Below are positions 17,831 to 63,106 of a stretch of DNA of 64,000 nucleotides, one piece after another. Made by a program: the position numbers and the translations under genes. This DNA comes from an uncultured Methanosarcinaceae archaeon (GTDB taxonomy: Archaea; Halobacteriota; Methanosarcinia; Methanosarcinales; Methanosarcinaceae): assembly GCA_963833425.1 (NCBI GenBank), contig CAWHXP010000007.1:291584-355583 (forward strand), read 5' to 3'. The notes below the pieces were generated by a model, which was given only the letters and a program-made list of their open reading frames with translations, did no database searches and was not told the origin of the DNA. How positions within the stretch are numbered: the stretch's first letter is position 1; every line of letters starts with the position of its first letter.

Positions 17831-18790
17831 ATGGATTTTCAAGCTTCTGCTAAAAAACTTACAACTTCAGTCAAAAGTGCAAAAATAGTCCCGAATATGA
17901 CTGTAGATGAGCTTGTAACTGAATACGGTGGTTGTGCCTTTGGAGCAGGCAGGCTGGCTGAGGCTGTGGACATATATTATGAGATGCTGGCTTCCGAAAA
18001 AACGACTAAATTTTTTGGACTTGCAGGTGCCATGACTCCTGCAGGCATGAGAATAATCATTGCGGATCTCATACGGGATGGACACATCGATGTCCTTGTA
18101 ACTACTGGAGCTAATATGGTTCATGATACAGTTGAAGCTCTGGGTCTTCACCACTATAAGGATACAGATTGTTCAAACGATATCCAGCTGAGACATGAAT
18201 GTATAAACAGAATTTATGATGTATATCTTCCTGACCAGCATTTTGCCGATCTTGAGGAGTTTTTGCAAAGAGTTTATGCCGGGCTTCCGGAGGAAAAGCT
18301 CTCTATCCGGCAAGTCCTTACAGAAATAGGGAATAACTTGGATGACGACTCTTCCATCCTGAAAATCGCAGCAGAGATGGATGTTCCGATTTATTGCCCT
18401 GCTCTTCAGGACTCTGTGATGGGGCTTCAAGCATGGTTGTACAGGGAAGGAAATCCTCTGCATGTAGACGCATTTGCTGATATGCACGAATACATGGAAA
18501 CATGCTATGAGGCTGAAAGTGCTGGTGTGATGTTGCTAGGGGGTGGAGTTCCAAAAAACTATATTCTCCAGTCCATGCTTGTGACTCCTAAGTCTTTTGA
18601 CTATGCAATTCAACTTACAATGGATCACCCGGAAACAGGTGGCTTGAGTGGAGCAACTCTTGACGAAGCCAAGTCTTGGGGAAAGGTAGGAGAAAATGCG
18701 AAATCAGTGACGGTATACGCAGATGCAACTATCACTCTTCCGATCATTGTCGCAGCTGTGCGGACTCGTCTTGTAAAAGATGTGATTTAA
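17831..18790 (+). CDS. dys: Deoxyhypusine synthase
   Basis: [17 protein letters not shown] and [16 protein letters not shown] motifs. Confidence 0.93.
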
Positions 18791-19454
18791 TGGAAAAGAA
18801 TACGTGTATAATTCTTGCTCTGGACGTACTCGAGAGGGAAGAAGCACTGAGAATTGCGGAAGATGTTCAGGAATTTGTAGATGGAATAAAAGTAGGTTAT
18901 CCCCTAGTACTTGCTACAGGGCTTGGAATTATCAGGGAACTTGCCAATTTTGCTCCTGTAATTGCAGATTTCAAGGTTGCAGACATCCCAAACACCAATC
19001 GCCTGATCTGTGAGCAGGTTTTTGAAGCAGGAGCAAATGCAATTATTGTTCAGGGTTTTACTGGGAGAGACAGCCTTGATGCCTGCATTGAAGTAGCTTC
19101 TGAGTATGGAAAAGATGTTTTTGTTGTAACCGAAATGAGCCATCCGGGTGGAGCCGAATTTCTGCAGCCTGCGCAGAAATAATCGCAAAGATGGCCGCTG
19201 AAGCAGGGGCTTTCGGGCTTGTTGCCCCTGCCACCAGGCCTGAAAGGGTAAAAAAGCTACGAAATATTATTGGAGACGAACTTGCTATTATAGCCCCGGG
19301 AGTGGGGGCTCAGGGAGGGACAGCATCTAAAGCGATTTCTGCAGGAGCAGACTGGGTAATTGTAGGAAGGATTGTCTATAGGGCAGAATCACCAAAAAAG
19401 GCTATTTGCGAGATTGTTAAGGAAATTGATACTGAGCTTAAAGGAGATAGCTAA
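18790..19454 (+). CDS. pyrF: Orotidine 5'-phosphate decarboxylase, frameshift near 19178
   Basis: [38 protein letters not shown]. Confidence 0.93.
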
Positions 19455-19550: not shown

Positions 19551-21686
19551 GGATCTGTAGAAATCCTTAATTTGATGCAAATTGTCTCTATAACTTTTTT
19601 GTTTATATTGTATACTATTAATTTAATTTTAATCTCTTTTACTTGATAACGGAATTTCCTTGCCCTAAGTGTCTCTCGTAATTTTCTTTTAACTACAAAA
19701 AACATCTTCTCTGTTATATTTCTTTGATTACATTTGATTTTGTCAAAGACCAGGTTCAATTGCTTTCTGTATTTTCCACTTATTTTCTTCCTTTTTCTCT
19801 CTCTTACAGGTATAATTAAATCTGCTTTGATTTCTTCTCTAATTATAGAGAATTTCAATAAACTTCGGATTTTATTTCTTAGCAGTAATTTCTCATATCT
19901 TCCCATCAATTTCTCTATTTAATTCCTCTTTTTGGCTTTACTTTATTCTCAATTCTTTGATTTTAAAGATAGCTTCCGCTATCTTCAATATACTTTTTTT
20001 ATTTTCAATTTCCTCAATTGATGGAGATTATAACAAAAAGCCGTACACAACATTTTTAGATTTACTCTTTTAACAGTAGTAACAAAAACTCTTCCTGCTT
20101 TGAAAATTTCTTTAGTTACTGAATTGATTCTTTCCCGTTGAACTCTTTTTGAGCTAATTTTCTTATTTCTGAATATATCCTTTATTCCCAGCGTATGTCC
20201 TTTGACTGCTCTTTTCATTGTTGCATTATACCCTTTAGTTTTTGCTCCAAAGTATCCTCTGTCCTTATAAACCACTTCATTTTCCTCTGTCAAATCTACA
20301 TACGAATCATGTACTGACGCAGTTGTTGTTTGAATCTTCTGATCAGCTCATAATCTCTGTCTATTATATTATGAAGCTTATATCCAAAGTGAGACTTACC
20401 TCCCTTCTTTGTCCATGTTCCGTCTCTGTTTCTTCTTGTTTTTGCCTCATCTCTCTCCTTTTGCATGTCCTGAATCTGAATGGATAAAAGTAGCATCCTG
20501 AATCATTCCCTGCTTTATCTGTAAACCCAGAGCATCAAGTTGGCTTTGCAACTTTCCCTATATTTTCTTTGAAATTCTCGATAATTCTCTCCCTAAATAG
20601 CCATACAGTAGTACTGTAAGGTACGTATTCCGGAAATCCAAGGAATTTCCTAAAAGAAATTCGATCTATACACTGTTTCTCAAGTTCAAAATCAGAGAGA
20701 CCATGCCATTGTTGTAAAACAAGCATTTTGAATATCACAATGACATTAGTTTCAGGTATCCCTCCTGAAACGGTTTTGTTAATATACATAGACTAAAGAA
20801 TAATACGAAACGTTTTCCAATCAATTAAGGAAGCAATTTCAGAAAGCTTATCTCCAACAGATTCAAGAAGTTTATACTATTTTTAAGAGCAAAATCAGTA
20901 AGAGTTTTCATGAATATACATAAATATTGACAAATTTAAAGCCAACCATGCTCAAGAGCAGGGAGGTTATCGAAATTCTCTATAGAATGTATTTTTTCTG
21001 AATCGTATCCTTATCCATTACATAACAATCAGACTTTCTCATCTTATTTGATTGCCTTATCAGAGCACTTGCATGTTTGATTTCATGGTCTATTTTTTGG
21101 CTAATTTTCCATCCCAATATTACCTTTTTACTTGTATCTACTGATATTGAAGTTCTCAGGAAGCTTCTTCGAAGCTTCTCTGTTCTTCTGGAATAATAAT
21201 TATAACTTGCATATGAACTCGTAAATCCTGTTGCATCAATCGCTGCAACAGAGGCATTTTCTCGATATGAGTAAAACAACTTTAGAATCCTTGACAGAAG
21301 AAGGTTAAACAGAGAGGAAGGAATCCTAGTTATAAACTTTTGAAGGGTAATGAGATGTGGAATCTTATCAAGAGCAAATTTTTCTTTTATATCCTCATAA
21401 AATCAATGAGTTCTACAAAATCTTGATAGGCTATACTAATATACCCTTTCAATAAAATCAGTACAAGAAGCTGATGCTGGGTATAAACATATTTTGAATA
21501 CTTGCAGGAATAAAACTTCAGTCTCGAAGACTGAACTGTTTCAAGGCTAGTATCAACAAATTTAATGTACTTATTAAATTTTAATATTGAATATTCCTTC
21601 ATTTTTAGTGAAAAAATAAGAAAATATTAGAACGGAATAGTTATAATATAGTGTAAAAGTCCAGTTTGGAGCATTTCTACAGAGCC
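19551..21686 (-). mobile_element. IS5-family element (ISH1/IS903-like), about 1.0 kb net, interrupted by a second IS
   Basis: TIRs ggatctgtagaaatcc and gcatttctacagagcc; 8-bp direct repeat CGTAAATC at 19543-19550 and 21687-21694; transposase pieces with AIDATGF, VMDK and ITEKMFFVVKRK. Confidence 0.85.
19848..20980 (-). mobile_element. IS5-family element (IS5 subgroup), 1133 bp, frameshifted transposase
   Basis: TIRs gagaatttcaataaac and ggttatcgaaattctc; TATA target duplication at 19844-19847 and 20981-20984; LQQWHGLSD, HFGYKLH and YKDRGY motifs. Confidence 0.9.
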
Positions 21687-21791
21687 CGTAAATCAGATGT
21701 TTATCAAAATATCTTTATATTAACCATTTGTTATTTGAATATAAATCAGATGCCTATGATGAAAAATTTAGCTGATTTTATGATGAACCCT

Positions 21792-22540
21792 ATGAGTTCT
21801 GAGGCATCAAAATCGAGTGTCACATAAATTAAATATTAAGAAAACCACGAGTAGAATATTTAAACTAGTGAATGCTGAAAACTTCCTAAAGTCTGAAGAG
21901 CTTTCAGGATGTAATCTGGAAATTTTGAGAAAGTATTTCAGATATTTGAGGCATGAAGGGAATAGAGAAAGAACCGCTTTAAACCATATGGAGAATATGA
22001 TATGGATATCGAAGGCGATTCATGAGTGCAATTTGGGAAAACTTACATAGGATGATCTGTATCTCTTTTTTGATGCTTTAGAAAACTATACTTACACAGA
22101 TAGGGCAAGTAAGGTAAAGAAATATTTTAATCCAACAAAGGAAACTCGAAAAGTATCTTTTAGGAAGTTCTTAAAATGGAACAAGAATTACGAGCTTCAT
22201 GAAAAAATAAAATGCAAACGACTCAAAGGACAGAAGCTTCCTAAAGACATCGAGTGTAAAGAAGATATTGTAAAAATGACTGAAGCAGGCGGCAATAGTC
22301 TGGATAGAGCCATTATAGCTTGTTTTTACGAGTCTGGCGCCAGAAGAGGAGAACAACTGGCTGTTAGCTCAAAAACATAGAGCTTGATGAATATGGGACT
22401 GTGATTACATTCCCGGAAGGTAAGACCGGAGCTCTGAGAGTTAGATTGATTTTCTCTGCTCCATACTACGGGAATGGATAGATGATCACCCCAGAAAGGA
22501 TGACAGAGATGCACCTTTATGGTGCACATTGGAAAAAAGG
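21792..22540 (+). pseudogene. Tyrosine recombinase/integrase, C-terminally truncated
   Basis: Across frames: DRAIIACFYESGARRGE (catalytic Arg box), EGKTG (catalytic Lys), DHPRKDDRDAPLWCTL; the HxxR and Tyr region is missing; internal TAG at 22048. Confidence 0.8.
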
Positions 22541-22547
22541 GATCGCT

Positions 22548-25040
22548 ATGGAATGTGCTATAAAAGAAATACTGAGGGGTTCTACACCGCGCGTGCAGGA
22601 ACTCTTAAAAGAACTCTTAAATAAGGCATTTTCAGATAGATCTTCTGAATGGTTTAAGGATAGTATGTTTCCTCCGGTTGGAAATGAAAATCTTTCTGTA
22701 ATTGAAAGACGCGCCATAAGCTTCAAAATAATGCTTGAGGCAATGGCTTCAAAAGAGAACTCAAAAACTACAAATACATACAGAATAAAAGAAAATGAAC
22801 TTATTGTAGGAAACCTTCCAATGGGTTCTGTAGGCTTTGGAAAAGTTTATCCTCAGTACCTTACAGAGGAAGAAAGAAGACTTATCTCTGTAGCCAACAG
22901 GGATATGCAGTCTACATTCGGTCATAATATACCTGATCATAAAAGGGTATTGGATAAAGGTATCAACTGGATAATCCAGCATTGCAAAGAGAAAATAAAT
23001 GAAACAAAAAAATGGTACTGAAACCAGTGAAACTAGAAAGAATAAAAAACTCGAATTTTACAAGTCAGTTATTATTTGCGGCGAGGCACTCATAAATTAT
23101 GCAAAAGCATTTGCTGACCTTGCAGACAGCTATGCTGATACGGAAAAAGATGCTTCAAGACAAACAGAACTAAAAGAAATTGCTAGGATATGCAGAAGAG
23201 TGCCTGCAAATCCCGCCGAAACATTCCATGAGGCAATACAAAGCGTTTATTTTGTACATCTGGCACTACATAGTACATTGGATTATATATCTCTTGGAAG
23301 GCTTGACCAGACACTTGATCCATATCTTCAGAAGGACTTAAAAAAAGGTACAATTTCGGAAAGTAAAGGTTTAGAACTCTACGAATGCCTTCTTATAAAA
23401 TGTGCTGAAAGAATGAACACAAACCCCGAATACTTCTTAAAATATGATCACTCTTCATTTGGAGGAGTATTTGGAGACAGCCCCGTATTCCTTGATCAGA
23501 TAGCATCTGCAAATAATTTTCTTCAGAATATTGCATTAGGCGGTCTTACAAAGGACGGAAAGGATGCATCAAATTTGAGTACTATTTTTACTATTTTAAT
23601 ACTGAAGGCATCCGGCAATCTGGGTCTTCCAACTCCTATAATAAATATCAGACTAAATAAAAAAAGTTCTTCAGAAATCATAAATGAAACAGTAAGGTCA
23701 CTGAGGCATGGCAGAAACGGTATGCCTGCTGTGTTCAATGATGACATAATAGTAGATGGGTTAAGCAAAAATGGAATACCTATAGAAGAATGCCGCGACT
23801 ATGGGGTTGACGGATGCTGGGAGCCTATTTTGAACGCTAAATGTGACTGGGTTTTCGGAATGGTAAACTTTCTTACAATACTCGAATGCAGTTTGAATTC
23901 AGGCTGTACCTTCAGTATTGATTCAAGTTTGTTAAGAGGTGGAAAAGCCAGTTATATAACAAAAAGTCCAGCAGAAATAACGAAGTTTGATGAACTCCTG
24001 GAAAATGTGAGAACTCACATTCAGTTCTTTGTTGACAAAACTGCTCTCCAGGCCTATTCATTTTATAGCGTAGAGGGCTCTGTTAATCCGACCCCTTTTT
24101 ATCTTCACTTCTTGGAGGCTGCCTTGAAAAAGGAATGGATAAGACATGGGGCGGTACACAATATCACATTTCCGGTCTTCTTGCTGTTGCAATGCCTAAC
24201 TGTGCAAATGCCCTTGCAAATATAAAGAAATTTGTATTTGAGCAAAAGAAATATACACTGCCTCAAGTTGTCGATGCTCTGAAAAATAATTTCAACGGCT
24301 ATGAAGAAATGAAAAATGCCTTCTGGAACGATAGTAACAAATTTGGAAATAACGTTAAAGAAGTTGATGCAATAATGAAGCAATTATTGGACTTCTCATA
24401 TAATGCAGGGCTTAAAGCAAAAAAACTAGGTGATGAAACTTTTATATTAAATCCGAAAAAAGACTTTAAAAGAATTGAAAGCAACCGGACTATCTGCCAT
24501 TATGAAGGTCAGTCAATGCATAAAAAATACGGTGATGATTTTAATATGATATTCAATTTGGGCTGCGGTACATTCGGTCAGTACACCCTGATGGGCAAGA
24601 GTGTAGGAGCTTCGGCTGACGGCAGATGCAGTGGCAAGCCTGTTGCAGCAAATTTCTCACCTGTAACCGGAACTATGAAAAATGGGATAGGAAATGCCCT
24701 TGCTTCATTGAAGAATTTGGAATTGGGCAGATTCCCGGCAGGTGTTGCTGTTGACTATTGTATTGATGATACTAATGGCGAAAATGACGATGCTTATTTT
24801 GAGAACATTGTAAGAGAATTCATAGAAGAAAACGGTAGTATCATGACTTTGACTTTTGCAAATACAGATGAACTGAAAAACGTATTCCAGATGTGTGAAG
24901 GAGTCCGAAATAAATTCCTTTCTTCGGAAGCATTGCGTCCGTATTCGCATATAGCAGTCAGAGTCGGAGGTTTTAACGCGCCATTTATAACAATACCAAA
25001 AGAGCAGCAATGTACATACTTAAACAGGATTACTAAATAA
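22548..25040 (+). CDS. Glycyl radical enzyme, uncharacterised PFL2-like subfamily, about 830 aa, 2 frameshifts in homopolymer runs
   Basis: PAETFHEAIQS, SLGRLDQ, single-Cys loop DYGVDGCWEP (Cys 23815-17), GASADGR, Gly loop VRVGGF (Gly 24969-71). Confidence 0.9.
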
Positions 25041-30186: not shown

Positions 30187-31065
30187 TTATAAACTAGAAC
30201 TTACTCAGTTTACTGCTTTGAAAATACTTCTCAATCCTCATAATTTTGATACTGAATGCATCGATTCCAAACATGTGCATAATTCAGAAGATAATTACAC
30301 TTTTGTGCTCTATTCATACTGTCTGACCTATGCACTCGAGGAACAAAATTAAGTATAATGAGTTGTGGTTAAAGCTGCGTGTGAGACAGTTTAAAGTTTA
30401 ATTGTATTGATTTCCCATCTCAACTTCTTTGGTCCTATAGAATTTATGTTGTTGGGAGTTCTGTAAAGTCAATGAGATGTTGAGAATCCCTCGCTCTAAC
30501 TTCAAAAATAGCTAGGACTACTCAGTATCCAAAGACTTAACAGAAACATATTCACCAACTCCAGCTGGGAGCCTCAATTAATCTACTAATATCATTTTCT
30601 TTTCATCATTATGTATATTTGTAACTATTCAATTTACCAAAAATCAGTTGGAATATATTTATTTTGATGCGATAAATACTTCTAATTATAACTGATGGAA
30701 AAATTAAGAAAAATACTTTGAAGGAAAAACAATATTCAATATTGACTTTATGTAAAAATAGTGAAAATTGGTAAAATTTTGCTGAATATCTAAGCCAGTT
30801 GATGAAGTACTGAAGTTGGACAAAAGGACAAATCTCAGTTATTTTTAAATTTAAAACTATCGAAAATCTGAACTCGAAAAATTAATAACTGCTTCTTTTT
30901 ATGGTACTCAAATTAGTTTAGAAGATACTCATTAAATTTTCAACATAGTATTGAGATTCATTATAAATCTTGATTTTTTTTGCTTTCATCCATACCTTTT
31001 AATATTGCCAATACATTAATTAATACGCATCATGCATTCAAAATCATATTCAGGTGACTTTAATA

Positions 31066-32224
31066 ATGTATTCTAATCGAATCAATGCATTACCACCATA
31101 TCTTTTTTCAGTTATCGATGAATCAAAGGATAGACTGATTGCGGCAGGAGTGGACGTTATTGATCTTGGAGTGGGAGATCCGGACCTTCCGACATACCCG
31201 CACATTGTAGAGTCCCTACGAGAAGCGGTTTGTGACCCAAAAACACATCACTATCCTTCTTATGCTGGGATGCAGGAATTCAGAAAAGCTGCAGCTGAAT
31301 GGTGTGAGAAATATAAGGGAATTGAGCTTGACCCTGCGAATGAAGTGCTCGCTCTAATCGGTTCAAAGGAAGCTATTGCCCACATTCCTATCGCATTTAT
31401 CAATAGCGGGTGATGTTGTGCTTTATACAGATCCGGGTTATCCGGTTTATAAAATTGGAGCTCTTTTTGCGGATGGGGAGCCATATCCTCTTCATCTAAA
31501 GGCCGAGAACAATTTCCTGCCTGATCTCGACTCTATTTCGGAGGAGGTCCTGCAAAAAGCGAAGCTTTTCTTTTTCAATTACCCTAATAACCCAACTACT
31601 GCAACAGCTGACATGGTATTCTTTGAGAAAGTTGCAAAGTTCTGCAAGAAACATGGCATCATTGCAATACACGATAACGCCTACTCCCAGATTACCTACG
31701 ACGGATACAAAAGTCCCTCTTTTCTTGCAGCAAAAGGGGCAATGGACATCGGAATAGAACTTTATTCACACTCAAAGACATATAATATGACGGGGTGGAG
31801 ATTAGGATTTGCGGTCGGAAACAAAGCTATTATACAGGGGCTTGGAAAGGTTAAATCCAACATAGATTCAGGTGTATTTGATGCTATTCAGATTGCAGGC
31901 ATTGCAGCTCTCAACTATCCCCAAACCAGTGTTGAAGAAATGAATAAAATTTATGAGGACAGACGGAATGCTCTCATCGAAGGACTCCAGGCTATGGGTC
32001 TTGAAGTAAAGCTGCCTAAAGCTACTTTCTACATATGGGCTCCTGTACCAAAGGCCTTTAACTCAATCAGTTTCGCAAAACTCCTGCTTGAAGAAGCCGG
32101 AATCGTTGTAACTCCGGGTGTCGGCTTCGGAGAAGCTGGAGAAGGTTACATCAGGTTTGCTCTCACTAAACCGGTTGAGAGAATTAAGGAAGCTGTAGAA
32201 AGGATGAAGAAGTTGAGCTTATAA
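31066..32224 (+). CDS. dapL: LL-diaminopimelate aminotransferase, frameshift near 31405
   Basis: [34 protein letters not shown]. Confidence 0.85.
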
Positions 32225-32392: not shown

Positions 32393-33246
32393 GGTTCTGT
32401 TGTAAAAAATTCAAAAAAAAATGTAAATCTATAAGTAATGAATAAAAATCAGAATATTCAAGGAAAATGCACTAACATTATAAAACTATGTCAAACAATC
32501 AATTAATGTATTTGACTTCATTAAGAACAGAGTAATTCAAATTATTGACTTGTCTTTTTTTAATCATATTCATAGCTTCAATTCTTTTTAAAGTTTTATT
32601 AGCAGATCGAAAAGACTGAAATCCTAACATTGGATTAACGATTCGCTTTATAGATCTGTGATCTTTTCTATAAGTTATTCAAATACTTGATTTGTCGAAT
32701 GCCTACGTTTTTAGGTAGTATTTTATCAATTTTTAGTTTATCTATAACAGGTGGATAAGCTTGATTCTTATCAACGGTTATTAATCTTGGAATTTGATTA
32801 TGATTAGAACTTGAAGCTTTCTTAAAGAATTTCTTCGCTGCCTTTCTATCTCGTTTTGAACTTTGCATGAAATCAATTGTATCTCCATTTGAGTCAACTG
32901 CTCGGTAAAAATATTTCCATTTACCTTGTACTTTGATATAGGTTTCATCAACTCTCCAAGAATCATTTGTTGGTCTTAAATGTCTTCTTATCCTCTTTTC
33001 TATTTCAGGGGAATATCGATGTACCCATCTCATGATTGTTGTATGGTCGACTTTTATTCCCCTTTCTGCCATCATTTCCTTTAAATTTCTATAACTTAAT
33101 GCATATTTTAAGTACCATCTTACATTTAATAGGATAATTTCCCCTTCATAATGCTTCCATTTAAAGGAATTAGATAGCATGTTACTATCTTTGGTTTTCT
33201 TTTTATTCTATTGTATCAGTAGAAAGGATTTTTTGCAACGGAATCC
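32393..33246 (-). mobile_element. IS6-family element, transposase frameshifted near its 3' end
   Basis: WRVDETYI, YRAVD, ITVDKN and KYLNN motifs; ends ggttctgttgtaaaa and ttttgcaacggaatcc. Confidence 0.9.
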
Positions 33247-55693: not shown

Positions 55694-56035
55694 TTAGCTT
55701 AATTCTGATTCGTTTGGATTATCTTGAAAGTATAAAGCACATTTTACTACTGCCTGGTATACTTCATCTAAATCAGCAGAAACATTACTAAATTTTGTTG
55801 GCTGTTTATATTTTATTATAATTTCGCTGGCTAATTTCAAATCAGCAAACTCTTTTTCTCGTAGCAGCAGATTATCTGGTTGTATCGAACCACTAGGTAA
55901 AGCGTGATTATCGATTAGTTTTTTTACATAGTAACGCTCATCTTCGGAATCGACTCTAAGTACAATATCATGCTTGAAGAAATGCTCTAAGAGTAAATTG
56001 CATAATATTTTCTCAGAAAGCAGTAAAAAAGCTCC
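55694..56035 (-). pseudogene. C-terminal fragment of a paralog of the wHTH protein at 56175-57226
   Basis: LLLEHFFKHDIVLRVDSEDE versus ILLEHFLNHDMLMGIDSQEE; no start codon; IS6 end at 56138-56152 upstream. Confidence 0.6.
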
Positions 56036-56174
56036 TAAACTCTACGAAGCTTCGAGATAAGGAATTTATATATTTGTTAAATATTCATCATATATATTCC
56101 TAAACTACTACTTATTTCGGTGAACCTTCTTTTAATATTTTGCAACGGAACCGTTTTTAATTAACTGACTTAAC

Positions 56175-57226
56175 TTATCGACGATTCAAAATGACATCCT
56201 GACAAATTTTATGACTTAATTGTGATAAAAATTGTGACAAATCGACTGATTCTCTAAGTAAAGCGATATGATCTTTCGTTTTTTCTGCAATTTCAAGTTC
56301 TTCTTGAGAATCTATCCCCATTAACATATCATGGTTAAGAAAGTGCTCCAATAATATATTTTCTCTATCCGACAAAAAAATCCTTTTCTCCACATTATCA
56401 ATAGTAGTGTGTTAGTCAAATAAGTTACAAGATCCTTTTTATCTATTTCATCTGGATTAATCTAGTGCTGTTTTTATTTCATAATTAGGTCTTGTTGTAA
56501 ATAGTGAGTATTTTATTCCTTTCGGTAATCCAGGTAAATAGTTTTCGATATATTCTGAAACATGCTCTTCAGGACTAATTGGGTCAATTTTCCACGGAAG
56601 TTCTTTCATAGTTTCTATGAATGCTTTTTAGACATTTTAAAATCTGGATAGTATTTTACACAAGTACGATAACATAATTTCAAAAGATTATTGATAAGTT
56701 GATGTTGATGAGATTCTTTATTATTTGTGTAAACTTTCCAAGCTCCTTTATACAATGTTTCAATACCGGGTTCTATACATGCATTGAACAACGAAACCGA
56801 CATACGTAGATTAGTATGGAATTTCAACAATTCAAAAGGGAAGAAAATTTGCTGAAGTTCTGAAAGGAGTAAATGGATAGATTTATCATGTTTGTTTAAT
56901 TGGATTTCAGGAAATTCATGTAGAATATTTTTTAAATGGCTGAATATTGTTATATCCCAGTAATTACCTCGAATCTCTTTACGCAAAATCAGTTTAATAC
57001 ATCTCAGATCCTTCAACTTATTCATATGTTTATTGATGGTACTTGGATCGCAGACTCCATATTTGTTTTTTAAATGTTCTCTTATAGATGACTCTGAGAC
57101 TGGTCCAATGTTTTTTAGTATAAATTCAAGGATGTTCATCTTCACTTCATTGGGTTTAAAGTGATCCCCTTTTGTTTTTTTCTCAACTTCTTTGATTTTA
57201 ATGTGATCTCCTTTTATTTTTGCCAT
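56175..57226 (-). CDS. Winged-helix DNA-binding protein, frameshifted
   Basis: NILEFILKNIGPVSESSIREHL...STINKHMNKL wHTH-like N-terminus; continues through ORF 56175-56393. Confidence 0.6.
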
Positions 57227-57366
57227 GTATTATAATTTACGATATGGGTAAAAATAGTTTCTATAAATTAGCTGTACGTCTATCGAAAAATCATTTATCA
57301 TGGTTATCAATAACCAAGAAATATTTAAATATAGATGCGTTCATAATTTTTAGCTGGAGTTAAAGC

Positions 57367-57537
57367 ATGAGTTTCAATTTAGGTCCACGAAAAATCCAAA
57401 AGGTTGGTTATTCGTATATGATCCCTCTACCAACCAATTGGATCAGAAATATGAATATAGAAAAGGGGGATACACTACATATAAAAATGGCTGAAGACAA
57501 AAGTCTTAGAATTACAGTTGGACTGGAAGGTGACTGA
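57367..57537 (+). CDS. AbrB/MazE/SpoVT-type DNA-binding protein, 56 aa
   Basis: MSFNLGPRKIQKVGYSYMIPLPTNWIRNMNIEKGDTLHIKM; divergent from the wHTH gene. Confidence 0.8.
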   Translation: MSFNLGPRKIQKVGYSYMIPLPTNWIRNMNIEKGDTLHIKMAEDKSLRITVGLEGD

Positions 57538-57816
57538 TTAAGTAAACAATATTCAACTAATTGAAGATGATAGTAAAATTAATACTGGAACGTTCAACGG
57601 GCTGCCCGTAACAACCCGTTGCGACCCAGGTTATCAAAAATTTCAAAGAGAAATGTAATGATAACGGATATTGTATCCATATCAATTTCTGTTTTCATTT
57701 ACTTATAGATTTCTCTTTAAAAATTTTTTGCTTGTTGGCGCAGATTGTACACTAGTCAAAATTGTGGTTTTTGGTTTCCTGGGCTATTCTATTCTCTAAA
57801 TAAATAAAATTTTAGA

Positions 57817-58149
57817 GTGATTAATATGATTACACAAAAAGATAACTTTGAAGATTATTATCTACCGATACCAGAATTTCTGAAGATAATAGATCCCAAA
57901 CGTGCTAATTACCAGATTTGGATAGACAAACCATATTTACTTATCCGGCATGTCAACGAAACCACCCGGTTTCTACATGAGCTGGTAGGAAAGCAATTGT
58001 CTGAAATCGATCCATTGACGAAACCTGAAGCTTACGAAGCACTCAGTTCGATAGCCAAAGAAGTGTCAAAATTATATGAAACAAGTCAATCATGTGGAAT
58101 AGAATATTTTTTAACAAACATTTTTAATAATTTAGAAAAGAAGGCGTGA
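57817..58149 (+). CDS. Hypothetical protein of the integrated element
   Basis: 110-aa ORF co-oriented with the replication gene. Confidence 0.55.
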   Translation: MINMITQKDNFEDYYLPIPEFLKIIDPKRANYQIWIDKPYLLIRHVNETTRFLHELVGKQLSEIDPLTKPEAYEALSSIAKEVSKLYETSQSCGIEYFLTNIFNNLEKKA

Positions 58150-58276
58150 AAATGCCTTCGATTATTTTTTTAAAGAACATTATTCTGGGCATCAGAGATA
58201 TAAGATTTCAATATTTGCATGATCTACACAGTCAGTTTAATAGGGTAAAAGATCAGCAGACTGGATCGGGATTTAA

Positions 58277-60362
58277 ATGAATGTAGACTACAAATTTAAT
58301 AAATGTCCTGGTTTTGATTCAGAATTAAGCAATTGGTCTTTGATATATCCTAAATTAAAAAATGTATTTTTTAATGGTGACAGTAATTCTGAAGAAAAAA
58401 TCTATGCCCTTGCGAATTTGAAAACCATCATTGAACCAATCGATACAAATGGAAAAAAAGATATTGAATATGGTTTTGAAGAAGATCAAATAATAGATAT
58501 TATGGGTTATTACGCTGGAGAAAAAATTAGATTCAAAATACATAAAAACAGTAATCGAAGAATCTAGAAAAATAAATAACATTGTTAGAAAATGGGAAGA
58601 TTACGACGTTCCTGCGGCTGAAAAGGGATTTTACCAGATAAGCGGTTCCGGAGTATTCCGGATTGTTGAAATCTTTAACGCTGTAAAAGGAGAAAATCAG
58701 TCTTTGATTAAAGATGTGTGCAGAACTCCTTTTGTGATTTGTGGAATTAGCGAACCCCTTAATGATGATTCGATTTATTATAAAATAAGGTATAAAACTT
58801 ATAACGGAACGGAAAAGGAGTTCTGGGCTGGTCAGAGTATTTTATTGTCACGAAGAGAGCTTAAAACATTATTTCTATCTAAAGGAATTAATTGTCCTGA
58901 AAACAGTCTCTTAATAGAAACCATAGAATATATAAGTAGAAGTATTTCTGAATTTGGTCCAGCCTTCAAAAAAGAATTCTCTGCAAAAAGGAACGGATGG
59001 AATGCCGACAAATCCATTTTTGTACTTGGAAACCGGGGGATTACTGCAAAAGGCATTCAGCCAGTGTTAGCTGTAGTAGATGAAAAGGGGTTTCCTGAAC
59101 TCGATAAGAAAGGAACTGTCCAAGGATGGGTAAATGGAATAAAATCGTTTTTGGAATATGATACCACTAAGATTCTTCGGTTTAAGAAGTATGACGCCAT
59201 GACAGCACCTTTGAAAGCCATACTTGGTGTAGAATCTCATTGCACAGATCACTATAGCAACACTTCTTGTGGAAAAACACTCTCTTCCTGGATTGCTCTT
59301 TCTATGATTGGAGATGCAGAGCAGTTGACTATAGGGGCAAAGAGTACACAAAAAGGTATTCTTGTACATGGAAGGGACTTTTCGGATTTACCTATTCTTA
59401 TCGACGAATCATCCGACGCTGGTGATAACCTTGCAGATCTTGTTTATACCCTGACTAGCAACAAAGGTAGAGTTAAGAGTACTGTAACGGGTGCCAGGGA
59501 TGGTGGGGAAGAATACCATACGACTGTAATGTTTACAGGGGAAAGACCTATCAGAGACTGCCTTATAAATTCTGGCCAACAATATAGAGTTATAGAGTTA
59601 TGTGGTACGCTTCCTGATATTCCAGCCAAAGAGATTAATAAAGTAAAACAGGTGATCCGAGATCATCACGGTCATGTCGTTGAATTGTATATCAAAAAGA
59701 TATTTGAACTTCGTGAAAATGGTTCTCTTTATACGATGTATGACGAATGTTTAGATTCGTTGCCCGAACACATTTCCAATATTGAAGGTAGATCCCGGAA
59801 TATTTTTGCGTGTATAATGGTTGCTGGAAAGATTCTAGAATCGGTATTTACGGACATAGGGATTCCAAATGAAGATCCTGTTCCGATCGTGAACGAATAT
59901 TACCAAAAGTGTATCCGTGATAATCCTATTGAGTTGGAGTACATCAGAGCTCTGCGCTTAATCTTGGACTGGATACATTCTGAATATGGAAGATTTGGGG
60001 AAGTTAACACTGAGTATGATGACATTACGACAAGGGATAGAAGCAGAAGATATGGGTACATAACAGACGAGTATATCGATATCATAGGGACTGAGTTTAC
60101 TAAAAAGATGAAAGATGAAGGATTTTCACCATCAAAGATTAAACAGGAGTGGCTGGATCACGGAATCATAGTATCCAATGACAAAGAAAGACCCGGTACT
60201 CACAGAATTACAAGAGACAAGGCAACTTTTGTAGGAATTAGGATTATTCGATCAATTGCAGAAGAACTTATTGGCCTTAATGATATAGATACTGACGAAG
60301 ACAATAATCTTCACAATACGAAAAATGAAGTCAATAATGGGAACTATTGGGTTTCTAACTAA
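58277..60362 (+). CDS. DUF927-family replicative ATPase/helicase (Cch-like), frameshift near 58550
   Basis: KRNGW, Walker A variant SNTSCGKT, Walker B ILIDES, KGRVKS, MFTGE, YRVIEL, HHGH. Confidence 0.8.
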
Positions 60363-60489
60363 CATGACAGGATAAACTAAAATACGGTTAGATGGACTAC
60401 AAAAGTCAATGATCTGGAAGACTTATTAAATATTCATTCAAGAAATAATAAAATTTTATAGATAATTCCAATTATTTACAAATCTTTTA

Positions 60490-60836
60490 AATTACACAGA
60501 ATTACACAGAAATTACACAGAAATTACACAAGTCATATAATCATTTTTTCAATATCTAATGAACTAATATAACTAATAAATTACACAAATTACACAGATT
60601 AAAAATAATACCTATAATGCAATATCTTAATTCTAGTTTCTATACGGAAAATATATGTTATATCTAAAATGTGTAATTTGTGTAATTTTGTTTATTTAAT
60701 GTCTCAGCATCTTTATTTTCTTCAAAATCATGTGTATTTTTTAGTCTATGAAATGTATAATTTGTGTAATTGTCATTGATCTCAATAGTCTTTAAAAATC
60801 GGCAGTATATGATTGGTCGTATTTAGTGGTGTAATT
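60490..60836. repeat. Inverted iteron array (AATTACACA), putative replication origin
   Basis: Forward copies at 60490, 60500, 60511, 60522, 60579 and 60588; reverse copies at 60670, 60679 and 60763 plus near matches at 60731, 60754 and 60828; AT-rich spacer between them. Confidence 0.8.
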
Positions 60837-61486
60837 CCTTTAATTGATTTCTTGCCATACCTATCATAAAATCTATTAGAATCGTGTCTGTATTCATTCA
60901 ATATCCCAATAAGTGATCCAAATGATCTAAAATGTCAAAAAAGTTGATCTTGTAGCTGCAGGGTGGTCAAGAATCCTGCAGCATGCCGAAAAGTCTATTG
61001 CAAGGTACTGGAATACCTTTAATATATAATAAGATTACGGATAATATATAGTTTTTGCATATATTCTAAATAGTACTATTCTAAACTAATGAGTTTAACA
61101 CTTTAGGCAGTTAGTACATAATACCTATAATTCCAAACCCAATCAGATCTCAAATCAAAGCACTTATATGGTATATATAATTTATATAATTTTAAAGTAA
61201 TAAATATATGCAAAAAAATATCGTGAAGGTACTTACCGTACATCCAAATTCAAATTATGGGGAATTAAATTGGTCGAAAAGCGACTTAACCTGAGCTCAC
61301 TAGAGAGACTTTTACAATAAGTTCGATGGTTATCATTACCTTTTATAAAAAATAGCCCAGAACGCCTGAGAATGGCTCATCGTTGATCTGACGTGTATGA
61401 ACCCCGCTTCTATGTAAAACAAAACGAACTAAATATTAAAATACAATACTAATTAATATTAATTATAAAGTAAAAACGGTGATAAT

Positions 61487-61928
61487 GTGGCTCGTCCTTC
61501 AAAACTTACTCCTGAAATACAAAAGAGAATCGGTGACGGTATATCGCTTGGATTAACTTATGCTCTTGGCTTCCGAATCAGCCGGTGTAACTTATAAAAC
61601 GTTCAATTCATGGATGCAGCAGGGCAAAAATTCAACATCTGGGAAATATTTTGAGTTTGCACGGTATATCAATAAATGCAATGCTGACGGCGCTAGGGTA
61701 CTACTCGAAAAGCTGAATGATGCGGCAAAAGCAGGAAACTGCACGGTGTGTGCGTGGATTTTGGAGAGACGTTTCCCGGAAGACTTTGGCAGGCGGATAT
61801 ATAGAAAAGCAAATGTTGTTTCAGAAAATATAAACACAAATGTCGAGATAACAGTCCAGGAAGCCGATATACTTAGAAAACAGATTTTAGAGAAGTTCGA
61901 TAGGGTTAGGAGAGCAACTAGTCATTGA
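61487..61928 (+). CDS. Terminase small subunit-like HTH protein, GTG start, frameshift near 61568
   Basis: MARPSKLTPEIQKRIGDGISLG...AGVTYKTFNSWM...AWILERRFPEDFGR; GGTGA upstream. Confidence 0.7.
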
Positions 61929-62018
61929 CTAAATAAGATTTTTCAACCCAATTTAATATATTTTTAATATAAAATATCTCATTGCTCATTTTGTCCTTTG
62001 GTATAATTTCAGCCAGAC

Positions 62019-62562
62019 TTACCAAAATCGCCACCAAGGTTTTTTAGATCCTGGTGCTTCAATGGACTTTTGGTTTATGAGCGTTTGGACCTGCAGGAAG
62101 TAGTTATTATATGTGGTCTTAAGGTCCTCTTTATCTCTCTCTGCATTTTCAAGCTCTTTCTTTAATGTCTCGTTATGGTCGTGTAAATCTTCGGCTCTTG
62201 CCTGCAGGCGTGAGAACTCAGCGATATCCGGAGCTGCCTTTAACTTCTCCTCCAAACTCATTATCTGGTCTGTGTATACCACTTTACTACGTTTTACTTC
62301 ATCCTTACTACGGTTTACTTCATCTTGTAAGATCTGTATTTCTACCTTATACTATTTACTTCATCTTGCAGGTTTTGTATTTCTTTTTCCTTTTCCTGTA
62401 GTAAGATCCTAAACTCTGAGTCCTCTTGATCTTTAGTATACAGTAGTAAATTAAGGCCTTCAATAATACATTCTGTATTACTTATGTATTTCTTGCCTTT
62501 ATAGCTGCCTGGACTTCCTCATAAAGCTTTGTGGGAATCTTTGCACTTATCGAGGATTTCAT
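62019..62562 (-). CDS. RHH-like plus coiled-coil protein with KKPWWRFW tail, frameshifted
   Basis: MKSSISAKIPTKLYEEVQ..., DEVNRSK/DEVKRSK repeats, C-terminal QKSIEAPGSKKPWWRFW. Confidence 0.6.
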
Positions 62563-62715
62563 AGAGTTATAGTAAAGCCTTACTAAATTATAGTCTTTTT
62601 TACTTCGATGTAGTACGGATATATAGCTATACATCAATGCATAACCTTGAGATATTTAAACCAGTGCGAAAAACGGTTAATTCACCTAAAAATGTACATA
62701 TCAATACACTCATGA

Positions 62716-62780
62716 GGATTCCGTTGCAAAAACTTCAGAATAAGCATGTAAATCTATAAGTAATGAATAAAATTAAAAAG
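62716..62780. mobile_element. IS6 terminal fragment
   Basis: ggattccgttgcaaaa...atgtaaatctataagtaatgaataaaa matches 32393-32450. Confidence 0.75.
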
Positions 62781-63106
62781 ATCCTAGAGTCAATCCGATT
62801 TTACAAAACTCTTGATACATTGCTGCAGATATATTTTTTGATATGGTAATCCCATTCTAGTTAGTTGATACAGAACTAAATTCTCATGATGAAAGAAATA
62901 GATTATGTCTATAATTAAAGAGTTGAGACAACTTCATGAAAAAAAAGATGTTTAAAGATTTCTAAGTTGATATGAATACTTACCTTTTAAAAAGATGCAC
63001 ATACTTTTTATTTATAACTTCAATATGATTCACTTAATTTATGTTAGAACTAGAATTTAACTATCAGAAATGCACATGGATGAAAACCTGCTAGTGATGA
63101 GCTGCA

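Follow-up and report, generated by a model that had tools for sequence, protein, structure and literature searches.

The window analysed here is a stretch of 64,000 nucleotides (nt) from an uncultured Methanosarcinaceae archaeon (G000:C7:291584-355583), whose genome, G000, is assembled in 21 contigs with a completeness score of 80%; the end of the window is also the end of its contig. At about 56.15-62.72 kb it carries a cassette made up of two divergent regulator genes, small open reading frames (ORFs), a replication helicase, an inverted array of iterons, a homologue of the small terminase subunit (TerS) and a gene for a coiled-coil protein. These features had been described in an initial annotation of the DNA, which read them as a satellite of a head-tailed virus, and all of them were confirmed at or near those positions. 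Judged by its gene content and homologies, the cassette belongs to a large family of Methanosarcina elements of 6-13 kb. The family is mobile and capsid-less, and the mode of action which we favour for it by analogy, with slightly less than even confidence, is that of the phage-inducible chromosomal islands (PICIs) of bacteria.

Gene content of the cassette

The replication gene (58277-60362 on the + strand, listed as orf96 and a 552-aa ORF) encodes a predicted DUF927/Cch-type initiator-helicase. In agreement with the initial annotation, the ORF at 58704-60362(+) matched DUF927 (E 2.6e-34, 119.6 bits against a cut-off of 22.6), and Walker A (SCGKT) and Walker B (ILIDES) motifs were read in its translation. 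The C-terminus matched HTH_56, the winged-helix domain of Cch (E 5.7e-7, 30 bits against a cut-off of 26.2), and in PHROGs the protein matched phrog_8841, 'DNA primase/helicase' (E 2e-47). The DUF927 core, the Walker motifs and the C-terminal Cch-type winged helix are shared with the solved Cch helicase of staphylococcal cassette chromosome (SCC) elements (PDB 5dgk) and with Rep2 of the Staphylococcus aureus pathogenicity island (SaPI) SaPI2. The protein is nevertheless distant from 5dgk (E 2.2e-9) and not an equivalog, its match to the NCBIfam model of SCC Cch1 (E 6.9e-17, 61 bits) lying far under the 700-bit cut-off.

Homology to helicases of this type reached upstream of the listed TTG start at 58704 to about 58557, in a frame that has no start codon there and, within an A-rich stretch, runs into the end of orf96. 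A frameshift within 58497-58567 is likely, and the complete product would then be about 690 aa long; five of six relatives have 657-804 aa, and the sixth, in G018, has 1006 aa. When the N-terminal region of the long DUF927 proteins was compared with the window by local search, only a motif at 58557-58661 was matched; no relatives of this region were detectable outside Methanosarcina-type elements.

The predicted iteron origin (60490-60836, no strand assigned) lies downstream of this gene. The sequence AATTACACA was found in nine exact copies within 60490-60771, six on the + strand and then three on the - strand, and nowhere else in the 64 kb, which bears out the inverted array reported earlier. 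With one mismatch allowed, the window held 42 matches against a shuffle mean of 27.65, and 0 of 100 shuffles reached 42. The first copy stands 128 nt past the rep stop codon. In the + set, four copies are spaced 10-11 nt and two 9 nt; the - set comprises three exact and three one-mismatch copies, and a 73-nt A+T-rich centre separates the opposed sets.

This arrangement recalls the SaPIs, whose Rep proteins are described as self-loading initiator-helicases with a C-terminal winged helix that reads short iterons (PMC9371898). According to the same account, the SaPI ori lies directly downstream of rep, its iterons flank an AT-rich centre in opposed orientation with at least two per side, and SCC Cch is a relative of SaPI2 Rep2 (PMC9371898). 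By its sequence, the cassette reproduces the SaPI Rep-ori design with a Cch-type protein. Furthermore, the rep genes of relatives are followed by iterons of other sequence (AGGAATTCGAAGTGACAA in three copies in G024, repeats of GTCCATACTTT in G029, and AATTACCTAAA in G018), and this joint switching of iterons and rep gene fits cognate origins. By these sequence features an initiator-helicase with a downstream iteron origin is present. The replication part is the best-founded part of the mechanism proposed below, and the element can probably copy itself.

The TerS homologue follows at 61487-61928 (+). Its listed ORF, 61560-61928 (122 aa), matched phrog_4102, 'terminase small subunit' (E 2.5e-13), as expected from the earlier label of a lone small-terminase-like gene; the start was corrected to the GTG at 61487. 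The first 26 codons lie in one frame and 61560-61928 in another. The former align to residues 9-34 of an intact 158-aa ORF of G024 (42% identity), the latter aligns from residue 36 of this homologue onward (33% identity), and both pieces are colinear with the intact homologues of 150-158 aa, so that the gene is split by one extra base near 61565. Within the family, 24 of 24 aligned members matched phrog_4102 (best E 8.9e-29) and 21 of 24 matched phrog_309; for the intact G024 TerS, the phrog_4102 match covered residues 1-134 of 150 (E 5.6e-18). No TerS model of Pfam or NCBIfam was matched, and among PDB sequences, the profile of the TerS alignment found nothing beyond weak helix-turn-helix (HTH) matches (E at least 0.5). 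In a fold search, the top match was the TerS of phage Sf6, with scores that were modest for a helical protein.

Gene order around distant relatives was followed in 80 IMG/VR loci (22-37% identity to the TerS homologue). A downstream ORF of at least 250 aa was present in 75 of them, and the first such ORF carried a Pfam domain of the large terminase subunit (TerL; E <=1e-5) in 33 loci, was a DNA methylase in two and was unmatched at E 1e-5 in 40. The best of these loci have 65-73% G+C and are for this reason regarded as bacterial phages, not as helpers. Homology of the 61487-61928 product to TerS is well supported by profiles and by TerL synteny in viral contigs, and the fold match, at its modest scores, is in line with it; these also speak for a packaging protein, and the product may function as a TerS. 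In addition, DNA conservation among 26 aligned loci was limited to about -400 to +1000 around the TerS start, which includes a conserved leader (61100-61486, +), a candidate regulatory or packaging site.

These results bear on a first alternative, namely that the cassette is an integrated plasmid-like 'cryptic integrated element' with no link to virions, which spreads vertically or by other routes and in which the TerS-like HTH protein and the convergent ribbon-helix-helix (RHH)/coiled-coil protein serve the element itself, for instance in DNA-binding regulation, as a pair for partition or as a recombination directionality factor. Integrated elements of small size that have a replication module but no virus genes are described as common in archaea (PMC6563490), and some sources label members of the TerS family as transposase or give an HTH_Tnp_1 match. 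The profile match, however, spans nearly the whole protein, beyond the HTH; the best structural match is a TerS, and relatives in viral contigs precede TerL. Two sister elements (G018 and G073, see below) carry TerL right after their small-terminase gene, and, as of the survey in PMC6563490, terminases were not found in non-viral mobile elements. We regard the plasmid-like alternative as possible, with a probability well short of even.

The initial annotation had also stated that capsid, portal and large terminase genes are absent. Twenty-two queries taken from proviruses of the genus and from viral contigs (15 TerL and 7 portal, head or capsid proteins) gave no match in the whole window, and no structural match in 12 related loci. 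By Pfam and PHROGs, the cassette holds no TerL, portal or HK97-type capsid gene, so that by gene content it is not a head-tailed provirus.

Upstream of the replication gene, a winged-HTH (wHTH) family regulator gene (56175-57226, -, listed as three ORFs: 56615-57226, 56457-56609 and 56175-56393) and an AbrB/SpoVT-type (MazE-fold) DNA-binding protein gene (57367-57537, +) diverge across a 140-nt spacer, as first described. The AbrB gene matched PF04014 (E 1.8e-6, 28.3 bits, above the cut-off of 24.7). The ORF at 56615-57226(-), of 203 aa, had no Pfam match; its AlphaFold model, built with seven homologues, showed the winged-helix order helix-strand-helix-helix-hairpin, and the best Foldseek matches of this model were regulators of the MarR/PadR type (best E 1.7e-3, probability 0.99-1.0). 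The protein is 34-41% identical to proteins of 224-410 aa at the equivalent position in relatives, and AbrB homologues stand at the equivalent position in G024, G029, G018 and the own-genome copies. By this analogy the pair would act as regulators.

A single gene of about 350 codons probably comprises the 203-aa ORF, orf50 and orf72, because the homologues have 224-410 aa, residues 319-356 of a 402-aa homologue are matched by orf72 (E 0.011), the frames bridging the three ORFs are open, and related short-read contigs contain 1-nt insertions behind 56624, 56459, 56453 and 56388, which by frame arithmetic bring the three ORFs into one frame. Beyond this gene, a remnant at 55694-56032(-) corresponds to the C-terminal part of a second wHTH-family gene copy: residues 12-50 of orf72 match 55883-55999 with 41% identity (E 3.7e-4), and the end of the remnant, as judged by eye, resembles the C-terminus of the 346-aa wHTH-family protein of G018. 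Between AbrB and the helicase, the small ORFs span 57817-58567 overall. Two of them (57817-58280, +; 110 and 44 aa), with no function assigned, had no family in Pfam, PHROGs, NCBIfam or PADLOC and no paralogue in G000. None of the 11 cassette ORFs matched a PADLOC defence model.

Downstream of TerS and convergent on it lies a gene at 62019-62637(-) for a protein with an RHH-looking N-terminus, a long coiled coil and a C-terminal PWWRFW tail. It had been listed as separate ORFs, a coiled-coil ORF at 62019-62282(-) and an RHH-looking 51-aa ORF at 62482-62637(-), and the coiled coil was confirmed. The two are pieces of one broken gene, of which an intact 236-aa paralogue, 66% identical, is found at G000:C10, and the RHH label for the N-terminus is a judgement by eye. 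Pfam returned coiled-coil matches only, and the intact paralogue had only weak matches of coiled-coil type in PADLOC. The tail is conserved as KKPWW(R/Q)FW. Together, TerS and the convergent coiled-coil gene make up a block of about 1.3 kb (61100-62450 in the window) that is conserved; in the window and 80 metagenome loci with TerS (L149-L228) taken together, the block is often found alone, without regulators, rep or integrase.

The right end of the cassette is marked by a dispersed repeat, about 81 nt long, of which one copy lies here at 62715-62795 (no strand assigned); G000 has 81 copies of this repeat, and it has no Rfam match. Further copies in the window lie at 32393-32457 and, inverted and partial, near 56033-56150, so that the cassette is flanked by inverted copies. 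The same repeat stands 32-35 nt past the TerS stop in two integrase-bearing copies of the element (C10:94863-94926 and C5:160218-160281), which are near-duplicates of each other. At the right border, G032:C50, a contig of a close relative, is 98.5-99% identical to the window from 62719 onward, that is from inside the repeat. G032 was also tried as an empty site, and this comparison failed, since left of 62719 it has unrelated sequence at the dispersed repeat. Base composition gave no sharp island signal at the cassette; no tRNA was found in the window and no credible Rfam match in 54-64 kb.

The state of this copy raises a second alternative, in which a head-tailed provirus lost its morphogenesis genes by deletion, and the cassette is what is left of its decayed left arm (regulation, replication, terS), with no present function as a unit. 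In its favour, this copy is without an integrase, four of its genes are frameshifted, and it lies 1.3 kb from the contig end among repeats and insertion sequence (IS) fragments. Host genes of the window are split as well, however: pyrF (two frames), a PFL-like glycyl-radical gene (three ORFs) and an aminotransferase gene (two ORFs), in the stretches 18775-19451, 22482-25040 and 31054-32224. Together with the completeness of 80% and the 21 contigs, these splits point to indel errors of the assembly, and for that reason the frameshifts of the cassette are not counted as evidence of decay. Public sequencing runs cover at most a 0.19 share of the stretch, with contigs that are 90-99% alike and thus belong to relatives. 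These contigs left the TerS frameshift site uncovered, reached the helicase frameshift site at a contig edge only, and contained, within that share, no joint indicating a circular form. In an RNA library, near-identical pieces were present (for example 59547-59851, with 2 differences), for which DNA carry-over is possible.

Related elements in Methanosarcina genomes and peat metagenomes

The family has a common layout: a tyrosine integrase in part of the members, the wHTH/AbrB pair, an exchangeable replication module with its own iterons, and TerS. A search of 61 genomes detected relatives of the helicase in 11 of them, G000 being one; all 11 belong to the same genus, and none is among the 24 searched genomes from five other families of the order. 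The two closest, at 47-49% identity, are in G024 and G029, next to pyrF. There, a 395-aa tyrosine integrase that has a zinc ribbon is followed by an opposite-strand wHTH-family gene (394 or 410 aa), AbrB, DUF927 (791-792 aa), iterons, an intact TerS of 150-158 aa and a few small ORFs, up to the host gene for DUF6908. The two divergent inserts, of about 9.8 and 11.6 kb, are discrete units between pyrF and DUF6908, and contain no TerL, portal or capsid gene.

A sister element of about 9.6 kb occupies the pyrF site of G018 (L141, G018:C15:18000-38000). It consists of an integrase, a 346-aa wHTH-family gene, AbrB, a 1006-aa DUF927 protein, the AATTACCTAAA iterons, a gene of another family (171 aa) and a TerL of 452 aa, directly followed by DUF6908, and no capsid genes lie inside. 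A 9.4-kb contig of G073 (L140, G073:C342) carries a wHTH-family gene, a DUF5906 replication protein, an A1-type TerS (136 bits) and a TerL that is 73% identical to that of G018. Hence, complete homologues with a capsid and a large terminase of their own, which according to the initial annotation would indicate a decayed provirus, were not encountered; TerL is present in G018 and G073, in G018 without capsid genes. Two more DUF927 loci, one in G013 and one in a metagenome-assembled genome (MAG) of the Methanosarcinaceae, have an integrase and no detectable A1-type TerS.

The order of these genes is also that of the complete head-tailed proviruses of the genus, in which a replication helicase or primase gene is followed by terS, TerL, portal, head and tail genes (G030, G007, G028, and G010 too). 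This shared order, and the fact that the elements of G018 and G073 stop after TerL, are what a provirus remnant would explain; a comparable thaumarchaeal element with TerS and TerL only was read by Krupovic et al. as a likely relic (PMC6563490). The proviruses contain portal, head and tail genes, all of which are absent from the cassette and from its complete relatives. On the other side, the same truncated layout recurs in many copies with different modules, with intact TerS ORFs in short-read contigs, and this recurrence speaks against decay, because random decay should not end at the same gene each time. The elements of G024, G029 and G018 are likewise discrete units of 9.6-11.6 kb in one pyrF-DUF6908 site. 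A provirus remnant is, in our judgement, unlikely.

In G000 itself, the TerS family gave 29 matches at E <=0.001, or, counted as six-frame segments at 1e-5, 23. Upstream of seven of these segments, at a distance of 5.9-12.5 kb, lies an integrase of the same strand, and between integrase and TerS stand the wHTH/AbrB pair and varied replication modules: an A-family-polymerase-like protein (C18, C1 and C21), a DUF3987/NrS-1-type primase-helicase accompanied by exonuclease and polymerase pieces of PolA (C8), or a prim-pol together with a protein of 387-595 aa (C5 and C10). The copies of the PolA type, located at contig ends, share 94-99% identity; this similarity suggests a recent spread and is a further point against a provirus remnant. 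The remaining segments, the window copy included, have no integrase within 14 kb, and in several of them no other recognisable feature accompanies the TerS/coiled-coil pair. As a separate observation, in the copies 94-99% identical, which lie in L120 (G000:C18:1-14000), in L119 (C1), in L121 (C21) and at the end of C6, the A-family-polymerase-like replication protein has 584 aa and its gene is followed by 22-nt iterons; it recalls the polymerase-like primases described for SCC elements (PMC10061031).

At E <=1e-10, the TerS family was present in 20 of 59 genomes of the genus, with 33 segments in G019, 32 in G032, 30 in G034, 22 in G000, 15 in G081, 6 in G036, 3 in G025 and one in each of the other thirteen. 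The first six of these genomes are related to each other. The 80 peat metagenome loci mentioned above were collected with a single intact own-genome copy as query; their TerS are 56-82% identical to this G000 copy. The contigs are strain variants of one habitat, not independent samples, and at most 10 kb on each side was examined. In these flanks, none of the 80 loci had a TerL, portal or major capsid protein gene. The coiled-coil gene directly follows TerS on the other strand in 48 loci, and a strong wHTH-family match lies upstream of TerS in eight, two of which extend at least 1.8 kb to the left of the wHTH gene without an integrase in either. For a plasmid-like element, it is a point in favour that TerS and the coiled-coil gene so often stand as a block without rep or regulator.

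Integrases, insertion sites and the search for a helper

A fragment of a tyrosine integrase gene lies upstream in the window, at 21856-22540(+) by tblastn (the integrase hidden Markov model (HMM) match covers 21796-22621). It corresponds to residues of about 7-235 of 395, in three frames, and is 84% identical to the integrase of G024. The fragment directly follows pyrF and IS fragments, and the pyrF site also holds an integrase in G024, G029 and G018. Cellular-type genes fill the 34 kb between this fragment and the cassette; IS transposase fragments (DDE_Tnp_1, IS240-type) occur at 19985-21279 and 32668-33180, that is in the gap between pyrF and the integrase and in the 34-kb interval. In comparison with G024 and G029, the identities differ sharply: 84% for the integrase (to G024), against 35-39% for the wHTH protein and 46-49% for the helicase. 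The gene order at pyrF also differs between G000 and five complete genomes, so that this comparison gave no explanation of the 34-kb gap; the integrase fragment may or may not once have been part of this cassette.

Apart from the integrase, two observations were made at the pyrF site. The non-coding stretch between pyrF and the element integrase is conserved (about 21702-21824 in the window, 5790-5870 in L015 and 4350-4430 in L016). By eye it resembles an archaeal C/D-box small RNA, with a stem GTGCC...GGCAC, two TGATGA and two CTGA boxes, and may serve the pyrF-site elements as their integration target. Just beyond the elements, defence-type genes are found: BrxB in G024 (L015 16763-18095) and, next to the G018 element (L141 107-9336), DUF499, DUF3780, a DUF1156 methylase and a PLD-SNF2 helicase.

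Several results weigh against the satellite reading. No integrase HMM match was found within 14 kb of this copy. The earlier statement that the integrase is not visible and may have been lost is too simple in view of the fragment 34 kb upstream and of the two metagenome loci that have no integrase either. No direct repeats that could be attachment (att) sites, of at least 11 nt, flank the elements of G024, G029 and G018, and none of at least 16 nt was found in a separate search. No helper virus was found. The TerL family PF03237 (Terminase_6N), which is present in 11 of 59 genus genomes at E <=0.001 (in 10 of them over the family cut-off), is missing from G000, G019, G032, G034, G081 and G036. 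These are six genomes with 6-33 TerS segments each, and the finding agrees with a plasmid-like element. In G000, which is 80% complete, neither PF03237 nor PF03354 detected a TerL, tblastn queries comprising five TerLs of the genus and the portal, head and capsid proteins encoded next to them returned nothing but one weak 54-residue fragment, and no complete head-tailed provirus was found. The complete proviruses of the genus use other TerS families. Among 13 TerL loci of the genus, a single one, in G073, has an A1-type TerS upstream, and its contig has the look of a further small element rather than of a full virus. The 15-33 TerS segments per genome and the many TerS/coiled-coil pairs without regulator or rep are unlike known satellites. 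Finally, the frameshifts of the TerS, rep, wHTH and coiled-coil genes in the assembly would mean decay if they are real. Apart from these points, a crude k-mer scan of G000 for CRISPR arrays detected short tandem repeats only.

Because no integrase is nearby, movement of the cassette would need a recombinase supplied in trans, or would no longer take place, and in its present place the cassette is probably non-autonomous or immobilised. With no integrase, a contig end close by and genes broken in the assembly, this copy is a poor specimen; the interesting result is the family.

Possible mechanism and relation to known elements

Weighed together, the satellite reading is the best single explanation, ahead of a plasmid-like element and of a provirus remnant, and we give it a probability approaching one half. 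What stands of the initial proposal is the layout and the analogy to PICIs, upheld by the complete relatives without capsid genes and by the TerS profiles; behaviour as a satellite was not borne out, as neither a helper nor an att site came to light and no sign of induction, excision or packaging was observed.

On this satellite reading, the divergent wHTH and AbrB proteins would set an on/off switch. Once the element is switched on, the DUF927/Cch-type initiator-helicase would bind both opposed iteron sets through its C-terminal winged helix, melt the A+T-rich centre and drive replication of the element. The TerS homologue would then bind element DNA and pass it to the large terminase and the capsids of a head-tailed helper virus. 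By analogy with bacterial islands, such a satellite lifestyle is plausible.

PICIs generally consist of divergent regulators, rep, ori and terS, and have no capsid, tail or lysis genes. The cassette resembles them, and the SaPIs in particular, in each of these respects: it has the divergent regulators, the initiator-helicase, an opposed-iteron origin around an AT-rich centre and terS, lacks capsid, tail and lysis genes, and belongs to elements of about 6-13 kb with an exchangeable replication module. An integrase at one end, another feature of PICIs, is absent from this copy and present in G024, G029, G018 and seven G000 copies. The regulators of PICIs are a cI-like Stl/Str pair, in place of which the cassette has a wHTH-family protein and AbrB. 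It also differs from PICIs in its archaeal host, in the convergent RHH/coiled-coil gene after terS and in the far higher copy number per genome, and no capsid-size or helper-interference genes were recognised in it.

Among archaeal elements, NitKor-E1 of Nitrosopumilus is an integrated element with a terminase (TerS and TerL) and no other virus genes, described as enigmatic and a likely relic (PMC6563490). The cassette family is like NitKor-E1 and the cryptic integrated elements in its small size, tyrosine integrase, replication module and terminase genes (PMC6563490); NitKor-E1 is a single element, whereas TerS is here the conserved end of a many-copy family. The plasmid-derived pSSVx and pSSVi and the haloarchaeal SRCE are thought to be packaged by spindle-shaped helper viruses (PMC4158269; bioRxiv 10.1101/2025.02.15.638363). 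Unlike the virus assumed here, these helpers have no terminase, and the elements themselves have no TerS. The archaeal satellites found described in these two sources are of spindle-shaped viruses only. In the literature searched, with supplements and subscription journals outside the search, no description was found of satellites of archaeal tailed viruses or of this Methanosarcina family.

A wider proposal, which goes further than the satellite reading of the cassette and is correspondingly more doubtful, is that these elements represent the first case of satellites that parasitise archaeal head-tailed viruses. As a family in Methanosarcina, they would be PICI-like, with interchangeable replication modules (DUF927, PolA-like, prim-pol, DUF3987/D5) and with TerS alone or TerS and TerL. 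An integrase-less subfamily, to which this copy would belong, would depend on the recombinases of sister elements, and dozens of copies per genome would have accumulated in a peat lineage, perhaps by targeting of the dispersed repeat.

Even if the elements are plasmids only, a terminase gene as the conserved end of a capsid-less family is unusual, and so are 15-33 copies per genome. The SaPI-like self-loading helicase with its clean iteron origin could also serve in the building of vectors for Methanosarcina. In bacteria, virus satellites have a formative influence on gene transfer and on resistance to viruses. If the elements described here are indeed packaged by tailed viruses, the rep-iteron-terS design would have arisen or spread across domains, and peat and soil methanogens would have a new route of gene flow, relevant to methane emission.

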